A DNA stretch of 4,555 nucleotides, taken from IMG/VR virus record IMGVR_UViG_2740892270_000009; one strand, given 5' to 3'. Below are positions 855 through 4,452 of the stretch, one piece after another (the first letter of the stretch is position 1; every line of letters starts with the position of its first letter). This DNA comes from a virus (taxonomy: Duplodnaviria; Heunggongvirae; Uroviricota; Caudoviricetes). The position numbers and the translations under genes are program-made. Under the pieces are notes generated by a model. That model was not told where the DNA came from. It saw nothing but the letters and a program-made list of their open reading frames with translations, and searched no databases.

Positions 855-1841
855 GTTGAGAGCGGGGAACTGTCATTTCCGGTCGCCGGAGCTGCAACCG
901 CCAGAAAACTGGAGGAGTCGTCCGTATTCCTGGATGAGTTGATTGAAGACATGTTCGGCGATTTTGATCTCGCGGGAATACCGGACTTTATTCAGAACGA
1001 TGTTATTGCCCGGACGACCGATATGCTGGGAACCGTTCAGACAGCTTTCAAAATGGTTAATTCGGCTGTTTCTGCCGGAGCGAGACTACTGCAGGGCGAT
1101 TTATCCGTCATTCTGATGCCGCCGTCGGTTGCCAGTGATTTTGTGCATACGTTGCAGGATACCTGGCGGGCCGGAACCCGGCTGGTGGATAACACACAGG
1201 ATCTGGTGCAGTCCATAACGACAATGTCCGGCATTACGCTGGACCCAGGACTGGCACCGCGTGCGGTGTGGCCCACAGATTCCGCATCGGTTATCAGGCA
1301 AAAACAGCAGACAAACCTTGTGGCTGCTGTCATCCGGACGACGGCAATCAGCGAAGCCACAAGGGCGGTCACTTCACTGCCACAACCCGGAAGCCTGGTG
1401 AAAAATCAGCAGGCGGTTGTGGCTGTTGGTGGTTCCACTGAACGTCAGTCCGATATTATTCACGTTTCTCATCCGGCACTTGACAGCGTGGCAGCCAGCA
1501 CAGGACAGGATGAGAGAGCGCAACCACCCACGCGGGAAAATCTCACCATCATACGCAAATCGCTGAACGCGGCGATTGAACAGGAGCTCAGGCGTACGGC
1601 GGATGACAGGCTGTTTTTTCAGCTGACGTCATTACGTACAGAACTGAACCGGGATATTCAGGCGCGTCTGGTTCAGACGGAGGAAACCGCAGAGCGAACG
1701 CCAGCGGAAGTTCTGCCTGCGCTTGTTCTGGCTGCGTCATGGTACGACGATGCGTCCCGTGAAACTGATATCCTGGATCGAAATGCCATCTCTCATCCGG
1801 GCTTTGTTCCGGTCAGGGCATTAAGGGTACCCGTCAGATGA
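855..1841 (+). CDS. Phage Mu gpN (gp43)-like DNA circularisation / tail protein, visible C-terminal 328 codons; true start hidden in the 444..853 mask
   Basis: Long open frame with uniform GC-rich codon usage ending at TGA 1839..1841, which overlaps the ATG of the next gene (ATGA). It sits immediately upstream of P/Q/gp46/gp47 homologues, the position of N in Mu-like tail modules. The family call rests on gene order and general character; I did not run a search. Confidence 0.55.
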   Translation, partial: VESGELSFPVAGAATARKLEESSVFLDELIEDMFGDFDLAGIPDFIQNDVIARTTDMLGTVQTAFKMVNSAVSAGARLLQGDLSVILMPPSVASDFVHTLQDTWRAGTRLVDNTQDLVQSITTMSGITLDPGLAPRAVWPTDSASVIRQKQQTNLVAAVIRTTAISEATRAVTSLPQPGSLVKNQQAVVAVGGSTERQSDIIHVSHPALDSVAASTGQDERAQPPTRENLTIIRKSLNAAIEQELRRTADDRLFFQLTSLRTELNRDIQARLVQTEETAERTPAEVLPALVLAASWYDDASRETDILDRNAISHPGFVPVRALRVPVR

Positions 1842-2925
1842 ATGATACCGTTTTACTTCGGGTTTCCGGTCGCGAATGGGGCGGCTGGACATCCGTCCGT
1901 ATCAGTGCGGGCATTAACCGTATTGCCCGGGATTTTAATGTTGCCATTACCACCCGCTGGCCCGGAAGCCGGGATTATCAACCCCGGATAAAAAATGGTG
2001 AGCTGGTTGAAGTGCTTATCGGGGATGAGCCTGTGCTCACCGGATATGTGGAGGCACTACCNNNNNNNNNNNNNNNNNNNNNNNNNNNNNNNNNNNNNNN
2101 NNNNNNNNNNNNNNNNNNNNNNNNNNNNNNNNNNNNNNNNNNNNNNNNNNNNNNNNNNNNNNNNNNNNNNNNNNNNNNNNNNNNNNNNNNNNNNNNNNNN
2201 NNNNNNNNNNNNNNNNNNNNNNNNNNNNNNNNNNNNNNNNNNNNNNNNNNNNNNNNNNNNNNNNNNNNNNNNNNNNNNNNNNNNNNNNNNNNNNNNNNNN
2301 NNNNNNNNNNNNNGTTCAGACGCTGGCTTATGACGATGAATGCGGGCGACTGGTTCTGGGAAAACCCGGAACAGGTAAAGCGGCGACGGCGCTGGTGCTG
2401 GTGCTGGGAGAGAATATTCTTTCCTGTGACACGGAAAGAAGCATCAGAGAGCGGTTTTCTGAATATCAGGTCAGTGGGCAGCGCCCGGGCAACGACGATG
2501 ATTTTGGTGAGGCCACCATTGCCGCAATACGTCAGACCATTCAGGACAGTGGCGTGACCCGTTATCGCCCTTTGTTGATTCAGCAGTCAGGCACAGCAAC
2601 GACAGCAACCTGTAAGGCCCGTTGTGAATTTGAAGCGCGCCAACGGGCTGCGCTTACCCGTGAGACAACATATACGGTTCAGGGCTGGCGGCAGGGCAGT
2701 GGCGCGTTATGGCGTCCGGGGTTATCTGTCATCGTTTTCGACCCGCTGAATAATTTTGATAATGATGAACTGGTGATCGCAGAAGTTACCTATAACCAGG
2801 ACGACCGGGGCACGACGACTGAATTACGGGTTGGCCCGGCAGATGCTTATCTCCCCGAGCCTGTTACCGCCAGGAAGAAAAAAATGTTGAGGAGGATTTC
2901 TGATGAACGGGTTTTCTCTTCGTAA
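1838..2925 (+). CDS. Mu P (gp44) / P2 gpD-like baseplate hub protein, with an apparent frame discontinuity across the 2062..2313 mask (possible pseudogene)
   Basis: N-terminal part MNDTVLLRVSGREWGGWTSVRISAGINRIARDFNVAITTRWPGSRDYQPRIKNGELVEVLIGDEPVLTGYVEAL is in frame 2 (1838..2061). The C-terminal part VQTLAYDDECGRLVLGKPG...DELVIAEVTYNQDDRGTTTELRVGPADAYLPEPVTARKKKMLRRISDERVFSS is in frame 1 (2314..2925, stop TAA 2923..2925). Summed length of about 362 codons fits a hub protein as I remember it. The mask is 252 nt, a multiple of 3, so the two parts do not join in frame as written. Confidence 0.6.
2062..2313. other. Masked interval of N bases (252 positions) inside the hub gene
   Basis: Run of n characters. 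Confidence 1.
2889..2895 (+). promoter_or_regulatory. Shine-Dalgarno sequence (GAGGAGG) for the spike gene
   Basis: gaggagg lies 7 nt upstream of the ATG at 2903, inside the 3' end of the hub gene. Confidence 0.5.
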
Positions 2926-3487
2926 TCTGATTTCCCGGGCTGTCATCACGGCGGTGGATTCCGCCAGAAAGTGTCAGTCTGTAGGGTTGAAAATGATAGC
3001 CGGAGATCAGAAACAACACGTTGAGCACCTTGAACCTTATGGTTTTACATCTGCCGCACAGAACGGTGCTGAGGGCGTTGCTTTATTTCCGGCGGGCGAT
3101 CGTTCTCATGGTGTGGTTGTGGTCGTGGCTGACAGACGTTACCGGCTGAAAGGACTGAAACGTGGGGAAGTGGCGCTTTATGACGATCTGGGACAGTCCG
3201 TTGTCCTGACCCGTTCCGGTATTGNNNNNNNNNNNNNNNNNNNNNNNNNNNNNNNNNNNNNNNNNNNNNNNNNNNNNNNNNNNNNNNNNNNNNNNNNNNN
3301 NNNNNNNNNNNNNNNNNNNNNNNNNNNNNNNNNNNNNNNNNNNNNNNNNNNNNNNNNNNNNNNNNNNNNNNNNNNNNNNNNNNNNNNNNNNNNNNNNNNN
3401 NNNNNNNNNNNNNNNNNNNNNNNNNNNNNNNNNNNNNNNNNNNNNNNNNNNNNNNNNNNNNNNNNNNNNNNNNNNNNNNNNNNNNNN
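2903..3487 (+). CDS. Baseplate spike / assembly protein V family (Mu gp45 / P2 gpV-like); stop codon lies within or just after the 3225..3487 mask
   Basis: ATG at 2903 with a strong upstream SD. Translation MNGFSLRNLISRAVITAVDSARKCQSVGLKMIAGDQKQHVEHLEPYGFTSAAQNGAEGVALFPAGDRSHGVVVVVADRRYRLKGLKRGEVALYDDLGQSVVLTRSGI carries the motifs I associate with gpV-type spikes (PYGF, GDRS, a Val run, RRYR, GEVALYDD). The end coordinate is inferred from the expected length of about 190-200 aa and is not observed. Confidence 0.7.
3225..3487. other. Masked interval of N bases (263 positions) covering the spike C-terminus and the gp46 start
   Basis: Run of n characters. Confidence 1.
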
Positions 3488-3488
3488 G

Positions 3489-3866
3489 ACCGGGGCTTCG
3501 ATCGACCTTCTGACGCGTGCTGTGATTATTTCGCTTTTTACATGGCGGCGTGCCGGGCGTGATGATGCACCACGGATATTTGGATGGTGGGGGGATACCT
3601 GGCCTGCGGTTCAGAATGATCGCACGGGGTCGCGTTTGTATCTGTTGCGACGCAGCAAGCTGACAAATAAAACCCCGCAGCTTGCCAGAGATTATGTCCG
3701 TGAGGCGCTGGCGTGGATGGTGGAGGATGGTGTTGCTTCCCGTCTTGATATTAACGCTGTCCGGACCGGGACAGACTCGCTGGCACTTGCCATTACCATT
3801 TACCAGCGTGACGGCAATATTCACAACATTATTTTTGATGATATCTGGAGTGAACTGAATGGCTGA
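3489..3866 (+). CDS. Phage GP46 family baseplate protein (Mu gp46 / P2 gpW-like), visible 125 codons; start hidden in mask
   Basis: Frame 0 translation TGASIDLLTRAVIISLFTWRRAGRDDAPRIFGWWGDTWPAVQNDRTGSRLYLLRRSKLTNKTPQLARDYVREALAWMVEDGVASRLDINAVRTGTDSLALAITIYQRDGNIHNIIFDDIWSELNG resembles the GP46 family (WWGD, GSRLYLL, EDGVA). TGA stop at 3864..3866 overlaps the ATG of the next gene. Confidence 0.7.
   Translation, partial: TGASIDLLTRAVIISLFTWRRAGRDDAPRIFGWWGDTWPAVQNDRTGSRLYLLRRSKLTNKTPQLARDYVREALAWMVEDGVASRLDINAVRTGTDSLALAITIYQRDGNIHNIIFDDIWSELNG
3846..3851 (+). promoter_or_regulatory. Probable ribosome-binding site for the gp47-like gene
   Basis: tggagt (with GGAG at 3847..3850) lies 8 nt upstream of the ATG at 3859. 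Confidence 0.35.
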
Positions 3867-4452
3867 CAGTCAGTTTTATCGCCCCGGCCTCCCGCAACTT
3901 ATTTCTATGATCCGGAGCGATTTATTAACCCGCTTTGAGCAGGATACGCTGCTTCGTCGTATGGATGCGGAAGTGTATGCCCGTGTACAGGCTGCAGCCG
4001 TACACACGTTGTACGGGTATATCGATTATCTTGCCAGAAATCTGTTACCGGACGTGTGTGATGAAGACTGGCTGTACCGGCACGCCAGAATCAAACGCTG
4101 CCCGCGAAAAGAAGCGGTGGCAGCCCGGGGATTTGTGCGCTGGGATGGCGTAGAGGGGACGCCGGTATTGCCAGCGGGAACGCAGATCCAGCGTGATAAT
4201 CAGGTGACCTTTACCACGACGGCGACGGTGACCGCAGCCGATGGTCTTCTCCGGGTGCCTGTTGTGGCAGACGAACCGGGATCGGCGGGGAATACGGATG
4301 ATGGTATTGCCATGCAACTGGGAACACCCGTCAGTGGTCTGCCGTCCACAGGGTACGCTGACACCATTACAGACGGTGAAGATATTGAAAATCTGGAAAT
4401 ATGGCGTGCCCGCGTTATGGAACGTTATTACTACATTCCACAGGGGGGCGCA
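3859..4452 (+). pseudogene. Baseplate J-like protein (Mu gp47 / P2 gpJ family), 3'-truncated by IS1 after codon 198
   Basis: ATG at 3859 overlaps the gp46 stop (ATGGCTGA). Translation MADSQFYRPGLPQLISMIRSDLLTRFEQDTLLRRMDAEVYARVQAAAVHTLYGYIDYLARNLLPDVCDEDWLYRHARI...YYYIPQGGAGND has the character of a baseplate-J N-terminal region. The frame then runs straight into the IS1 terminus at 4453 and stops at 4531..4533 after 26 IS1-encoded codons. Family members are, from memory, roughly 300-400 aa, so the C-terminal part is missing. Confidence 0.7.

Follow-up and report, generated by a model that had tools for sequence, protein, structure and literature searches.

The closest phage relative of the DNA treated here is phiP27 (Stx2e-converting; NC_003356), and its baseplate proteins have homologues in phage Mu, where each wedge has two gp47 conformers, which build the core helical bundle and the contacts between wedges (PMC11915804). 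PHAST analyses of Shigella sonnei genomes list regions with phiP27 as the best match, and the published tables label some such regions "intact" on gene-count criteria (PMC5447701; PMC6128377). We analyzed a 4,555-nucleotide (nt) stretch of viral DNA, IMG/VR record IMGVR_UViG_2740892270_000009 (the window, meaning the whole stretch), which carries the Mu-type baseplate genes N, P, gp45, gp46 and gp47 between two copies of the insertion sequence (IS) IS1. It is very probably the central 4.35 kb of the tail gene cluster of a defective phiP27-like prophage in the S. sonnei chromosome, interrupted by two independent, inverted IS1 insertions, and the baseplate module looks isolated because the sequence stops within the IS1 repeats.

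IS1 insertions and the surrounding tail cluster

Two reference sequences were used, the complete S. sonnei chromosome GCA_965230885.1 (L002) and the prophage of Escherichia coli FDAARGOS_944 (NZ_CP065613; L001), which is uninterrupted at the IS1 sites. All unmasked stretches of the window, both IS1 junctions included, are 100% identical to L002. Positions 104-4452 (4.35 kb) are bracketed by the inverted IS1 copies, window 1-103 being the exact reverse complement of 4453-4555, with the same IS1 terminus (the GGTAATGACTCCAAC... end) on both sides. Four runs are masked with N (444-695, 698-853, 2062-2313 and 3225-3487). The masks do not preserve length relative to L002, where the 410 N at 444-853 correspond to 492 real bases, the 252 N at 2062-2313 to 247 and the 263 N at 3225-3487 to 249, so frames and coordinates are not transferable across the N runs. 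The masking thus hides where N and gp46 start and where gp45 ends, and position 855 is a mere mask edge. Very long open reading frames (ORFs) spanning the N stretches were discarded as masking artefacts. The features are as follows, in window coordinates unless L001 or L002 is named, with protein lengths in amino acids (aa).

1-103, + strand: terminal 103 nt of the left IS1 copy, its GGTAATGACTCCAAC... end seen as the reverse complement; the IS body lies left of the window (full 768-bp IS1 at L002 5415-6182, with InsA and IS1 transposase Pfam hits)
104-112, no strand: 9-bp target duplication of the left IS1, CGTTAAAAC (same 9-mer directly before the far IS1 end in L002; the flanks overlap by 9 bp on L001 20001-20009)
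104-443, + strand: accessory gene, 160 aa, putative lipoprotein, codons 35-147 visible, end under the mask (100% identical to L001 20001-20340, within WP_000594909.1)
444-1841, + strand: gene N, homologue of Mu gp43, tube initiator or "DNA circularisation" protein, 463 aa, visible from 854 (L002 6611-8002, identical over the visible part)
1838-2925, + strand: gene P, homologue of Mu gp44, baseplate hub, 360 aa in L002, middle masked at 2062-2313
2903-3224, + strand: gp45 homologue, central spike of the P2 gpV type, 177 aa, 3' end under the mask at 3225-3487 (L002 9059-9592)
3488-3866, + strand: gp46 homologue, baseplate wedge protein 1, 136 aa, start masked (L002 9598-10008)
3859-4452, + strand: gp47 homologue, baseplate wedge protein 2 (Baseplate_J), first 198 of 360 codons (55%), cut by IS1 at 4452/4453
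4444-4452, no strand: 9-bp target duplication of the right IS1, GGGGGCGCA (same 9-mer after the far IS1 end, L002 11363-11371)
4453-4555, - strand: terminal 103 nt of the second IS1 copy, in the opposite orientation to the left one; the IS body lies right of the window (full copy at L002 10595-11362, IS1 genes on the - strand)

The DNA on either side of each IS1 is collinear with the uninterrupted E. coli prophage, the overlap consisting of the duplications only. Since each IS1 has its own 9-bp duplication and collinear flanks, the two copies are independent simple insertions, and no flanking DNA was lost. The left copy interrupts the accessory gene after nt 101, and its removal in silico exactly restores the 160-aa ORF. 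The right copy cuts the wedge gene gp47, as the preliminary description of this DNA had stated, after 198 of its 360 codons. The window holds no complete gp47 gene, the remaining part lying beyond the right IS1; when that IS1 and one duplication copy were removed in silico, a gp47 of 360 aa was restored, 359 of them identical to the E. coli relative. In the window the gp47 frame stays open into IS1 as far as a stop codon at 4531-4533, which makes a fusion ORF of 224 aa (3859-4533). This fusion ORF is annotated as "putative head assembly protein" in Ss046 and other records, a misnomer for a truncated baseplate wedge protein.

The fusion ORF is unmasked and was hence used for an exact-sequence look-up in the assembly collection; a second look-up used the S. 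sonnei sheath protein. The fusion ORF was found in 226 blocks, the longest contig being 2-5 kb in 186 of them, and chromosome-sized contigs were present in 20. Members of its cluster are named S. sonnei (e.g., Ss046, Q3YYR0_SHISS), and many lie on contigs of 4.50-4.66 kb, about as long as the window. We infer that the window is itself a repeat-bounded contig of this kind. Sixteen loci in complete or near-complete genomes, chosen by the fusion ORF or by the sheath protein (some genomes being in both sets), were then compared.

All of these loci have the same arrangement. To the left of the left IS1 lie IS600 and the genes for sheath (498 aa), tube, chaperone and tape measure (649 aa). Between the IS1 copies are the remainder of the accessory gene, N, P, gp45, gp46 and gp47 codons 1-198. 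To the right of the inverted IS1 follow the C-terminal part of gp47, gp48, a fibre gene, a fibre-assembly gene, a second fibre gene, a gene for a DUF4376 protein, the tmRNA gene and smpB. The preliminary description had read the baseplate module as present without the rest of the tail, and had named intact tail genes just beyond the IS1 copies as the finding that would speak against this. The absence holds only inside the window: in complete genomes with identical sequence, the sheath to tape-measure genes on one side and the gp47 remainder, gp48 and fibre genes on the other lie directly beyond the IS1 copies.

Farther upstream, the order is clpB, yfiH, rluD, bamD, IS4, a 120-aa Peptidase_S78 fragment, IS600 and the sheath gene (IS4 and IS600 were named from the RefSeq annotation at sites matching with 99% identity or more). 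The Peptidase_S78 fragment measures 452 nt; the corresponding stretch in the E. coli relative runs from the end of the portal gene through the first 362 nt of the prohead-protease gene. Prophage homology restarts just 19 nt ahead of the sheath start codon. The interval from bamD to ssrA contains this fragment, the tail module and four IS copies only, with no integrase, repressor or regulatory, replication, lysis, terminase, intact portal or capsid gene, and neither holin, endolysin nor regulator genes were found within 10 kb on either side of the locus. Head, lysis and integration modules have been lost. The label "prophage remnant" given in the preliminary description holds because gp47, an essential wedge gene, is split, because IS600 and IS4 have replaced the upstream part except for the 452-nt fragment, and because the head, lysis and integrase genes are gone. 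Its conclusion that this is a decayed prophage, and not an active phage or tailocin, was sound on these grounds, and its argument from absent tail genes was not.

The surroundings of the remnant vary. At one locus (L017 14909-16065), an IS600 is apparently nested in the left IS1, N is displaced by 1,267 nt and the IS1 genes are uncalled, a case of further IS accumulation. The chromosome around the remnant differs at the IS4 and IS600 copies among S. sonnei genomes (L014 6926-9938; L002 18149-19477; L007 16200-18741), the variants, found in one genome each, being ratB-IS4-raiA, ratB-IS4-bamE and an IS with an integrase-bearing prophage arm behind it. These differing surroundings indicate IS-mediated inversions. 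Next to the 3' end of the tmRNA gene stands the fibre end, and no integrase.

Baseplate genes and their lesions

The five window genes, all on the + strand, follow the order of Mu gp43-gp48 (N-P-45-46-47-48) with overlapping junctions, and both their order and their identities, as first proposed from the letters of the window, agree with the matches to Pfam and to the Mu baseplate in PDB entry 9ki1. Full-length N from L002 matches DNA_circ_N (PF07157; E = 3e-36) and chain 9ki1_0 (Mu protein N; E = 1.5e-13) and is 95.7% identical in aa to phiP27 L48. Window 855-1838 gave no match when searched against Pfam, because the sole Pfam domain of N sits under the mask, and this is not evidence against N. 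The visible parts of P (1838-2059 and 2314-2922) match GpP-like_1st, NMB1110_3rd and GpP_4th, the domains of Mu gp44, and P matches the Mu gp44 structures (PDB 1wru/9ki1; E = 6.7e-45). The gp45 homologue (2903-3223) matches Phage_Mu_Gp45 (PF06890; E = 7e-27) and 9ki1_V (E = 2.6e-14), and the gp46 homologue (3489-3863) matches GP46 (PF07409; E = 3e-33) and 9ki1_A (E = 3e-12). The N-terminal part of gp47 covers profile positions 2-134 of 255 in Baseplate_J, and a full-length gp47 relative matches 9ki1_H (E = 4e-36). The profile search proposed in the preliminary description was thus positive on the window translations for P, gp45, gp46 and gp47, and for DNA_circ_N with the full-length N. PHROGs matches also back the family assignments of these tail genes, and the GC content of the baseplate genes is about 54%.

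The gene junctions are exactly those first described: ATGA at 1838-1841 between N and P, ATGGCTGA at 3859-3866 between gp46 and gp47, and a 23-nt overlap between P and gp45 (ATG at 2903 to TAA at 2925), with a strong Shine-Dalgarno (SD) motif, GAGGAGG, at 2889-2895. The long P/gp45 overlap has a particular origin. Window 2878-2884 is a run of seven A (A7), which is present in 15 of the 16 S. sonnei loci, the other having A6; phiP27 and the E. coli relative carry A8, and there P ends in ...KKKNVEEDF and overlaps the next gene by 1 nt (TGATG). The change from A8 to A7 swaps the last 6 residues of P for 13 (MLRRISDERVFSS) and moves the stop 22 nt downstream. The 23-nt overlap is therefore due to a 1-nt deletion, a fixed, S. 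sonnei-specific -1 frameshift, and the "coupled junction" with its strong SD is an ancestral SD combined with a lineage-specific frameshift, a mild lesion and not a design feature.

P also contains an in-frame hexamer repeat (window 2389-2406; GGTGCT units encoding Leu-Val repeats), which is 12, 18 or 24 nt long among S. sonnei genomes, giving a P of 358, 360 or 362 aa, and 12 nt long in the E. coli relative and in phiP27. A frameshift in P beneath the mask at 2062-2313, considered because the frames differ on either side, was rejected, as the mask length is false and P in L002 is an intact 360-aa ORF.

In an intact phage, a single late transcript serves for N to gp47, the stop codon of one gene overlapping the start codon of the next, and the proteins build the simple baseplate that is the platform for tube and sheath polymerisation. 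At this locus, no tail should be producible, with gp47 split and the accessory gene split by the other IS1; as gp47 is disrupted and its role in the Mu baseplate is known, baseplate assembly would not be expected. All that once lay upstream of the sheath gene has been lost to IS600 and IS4, apart from the portal/protease fragment, and the apparent isolation of the module reflects a sequence that ends in IS1 repeats, as short-read contigs of IS-rich Shigella genomes do.

The accessory gene stands between the tape-measure gene and N and is whole in the E. coli prophage (L001 19900-20382). It is rich in adenine and thymine (AT-rich; GC content, 39.7%), and the N-terminus of its product resembles a lipoprotein signal (...VAILTSC). 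The protein matches phrog_5586, a family without assigned function, and no family was matched in Pfam. The ORF may be a phage accessory ("moron") gene; phiP27 lacks it, with no gene at all between the tape-measure gene and N. Phage vB_EcoM-720R4 has a homologue, 49.7% identical, which by its coordinates apparently occupies the same slot.

Alternative readings of the locus

Seen from within the window, where only IS1 ends flank the five genes, the module might be a free-standing, baseplate-only fragment whose sheath, tube, tape-measure and fibre genes were deleted, with the IS1 copies as deletion end points. We consider this highly unlikely, because the remaining tail genes stand directly outside the IS1 copies in 16 of 16 loci, and the separate 9-bp duplications, with the collinearity to an uninterrupted relative, show that there was no deletion; for the genomes examined, the idea is refuted. 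The same duplications bear on another explanation. Pairs of IS1 can form composite transposons, e.g., Tn9, and identical inverted IS1 termini do bracket the segment here, which might thus move or invert as a unit together with its 4.35 kb. A composite transposon is nonetheless exceedingly improbable: the duplications at the two ends differ (CGTTAAAAC and GGGGGCGCA), and collinearity with the uninterrupted prophage, both within the segment and outside it, shows that it has never transposed as a unit, and it sits in the same place and orientation in all loci examined, with neither a second site nor an inverted copy seen.

Domestication as an R-type tailocin, a tail-only cluster retained by the host to kill competitors, would fit a locus that is essentially tail-only from sheath to fibres, with mostly full-length tail ORFs that share 95-99% identity with their counterparts in a functional phage. 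Recent IS hits would leave such ORFs in any case. IS1 interrupts gp47 in all the genomes examined, neither a lysis cassette nor a regulator was found in the 10 kb to each side, P has a C-terminal frameshift, and the portal/protease scrap between IS4 and IS600 shows that the head module was lost through IS activity and not by design. We regard a tailocin as extremely unlikely. Very unlikely, too, is a set of less orthodox variants, in which the cluster was a functional tailocin or satellite-usable tail module in the immediate S. sonnei ancestor and was recently killed by IS1, or the 4.35-kb segment is invertible or mobilisable in some strains, or, in a smaller version, the AT-rich accessory gene has a phage function (e.g., exclusion) and occupies a recurrent insertion slot.

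Three points weigh against our interpretation of the window as the center of an IS1-interrupted, defective prophage tail cluster. About 20% of the window is masked and not directly checkable. The surroundings of the window itself are deduced from other S. sonnei genomes, whose sequence is the same at all visible bases, and an exact scan for the left junction among species-representative genomes gave no match. Nearly all tail ORFs, save gp47 and the accessory gene, are full length, and their sequences are compatible with expression of individual proteins. The interpretation as a defective phiP27-like tail cluster accounts for both IS1 junctions and for the genes beyond them, and for this locus the present analysis does not support the label "intact".

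Comparison with known prophages and phages

The locus is already known and annotated, and nothing in it is new: its ORFs have been in UniProt since the Ss046 genome (fusion ORF, Q3YYR0_SHISS; P, Q3YYR3_SHISS), and 53G (HE616528.1) has an identical fusion ORF. The annotated prophage remnants of S. sonnei Ss046, 53G and 75/02 are the same locus, with no substantive difference. The useful result is a negative one: the module only seems isolated, as an effect of the repeat boundaries. IS-rich genomes such as those of Shigella give contigs that end in IS copies, and "missing" neighbors are then a property of the assembly and not of the genome, which calls for caution. Otherwise, the locus is a further example of IS-driven prophage decay in S. 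sonnei, with no wider consequence evident. The IS1 junctions and the 6-nt repeat in P, variable or fixed within the species, could serve as typing markers.

Mu has homologues of all five baseplate proteins in identical order, with a gp48 homologue next, and its simple-baseplate architecture and protein roles can be carried over to these genes. The five window proteins are 26-39% identical to those of Mu in aa (23-39% across all matching tail proteins), and for the chaperone and the tape-measure protein no significant similarity to Mu was found. The term "Mu-like prophage" is too strong, as only the tail is of Mu type, the closest phage being the lambdoid, cos-packaging, integrase-carrying phiP27. 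Unlike Mu, the parent phage was not transposable: its intact close relatives use an integrase and cos packaging, with a P27-family terminase and a head of the HK97 type. None of these features is left in the S. sonnei remnant, and no Mu-type transposase A/B replication, head or early regions are there either.

Prophages of this kind are common in E. coli, and that of FDAARGOS_944 matches best (98.8% identical). Its tail module is the same, down to the AT-rich accessory gene that separates the tape-measure gene from N, and belongs to a full prophage with terminase, portal, capsid, sheath, tube, tape measure, baseplate and fibres. It has no IS1 at these sites, the A8 allele, a full-length gp47 and another chromosomal site, and it has kept its head and lysis modules. 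This prophage (L001 1-33000) is decaying too: ISEc60 has inserted into its portal and sheath genes, the terminase and Q genes are frameshifted, and a frameshifted ipaH effector gene lies beside its fibre genes.

In phiP27, sheath, tube, chaperone, tape measure, N (L48) to gp47 (L52), gp48 and fibres stand in the same order as in S. sonnei. The DNA from N to gp47 is 96.6% identical over 90% of the segment, and ten tail proteins are 95.6-98.8% identical in aa. Whereas the S. sonnei cluster is reduced to a tail module, phiP27 is a complete lambdoid phage, free of IS, that carries stx2e, an integrase gene and lysis genes as well as a cos site, terminase genes and genes for an HK97-type head. The leftover head fragment of S. 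sonnei has no DNA-level match in phiP27, so the parent phage of the remnant was a mosaic relative of phiP27.

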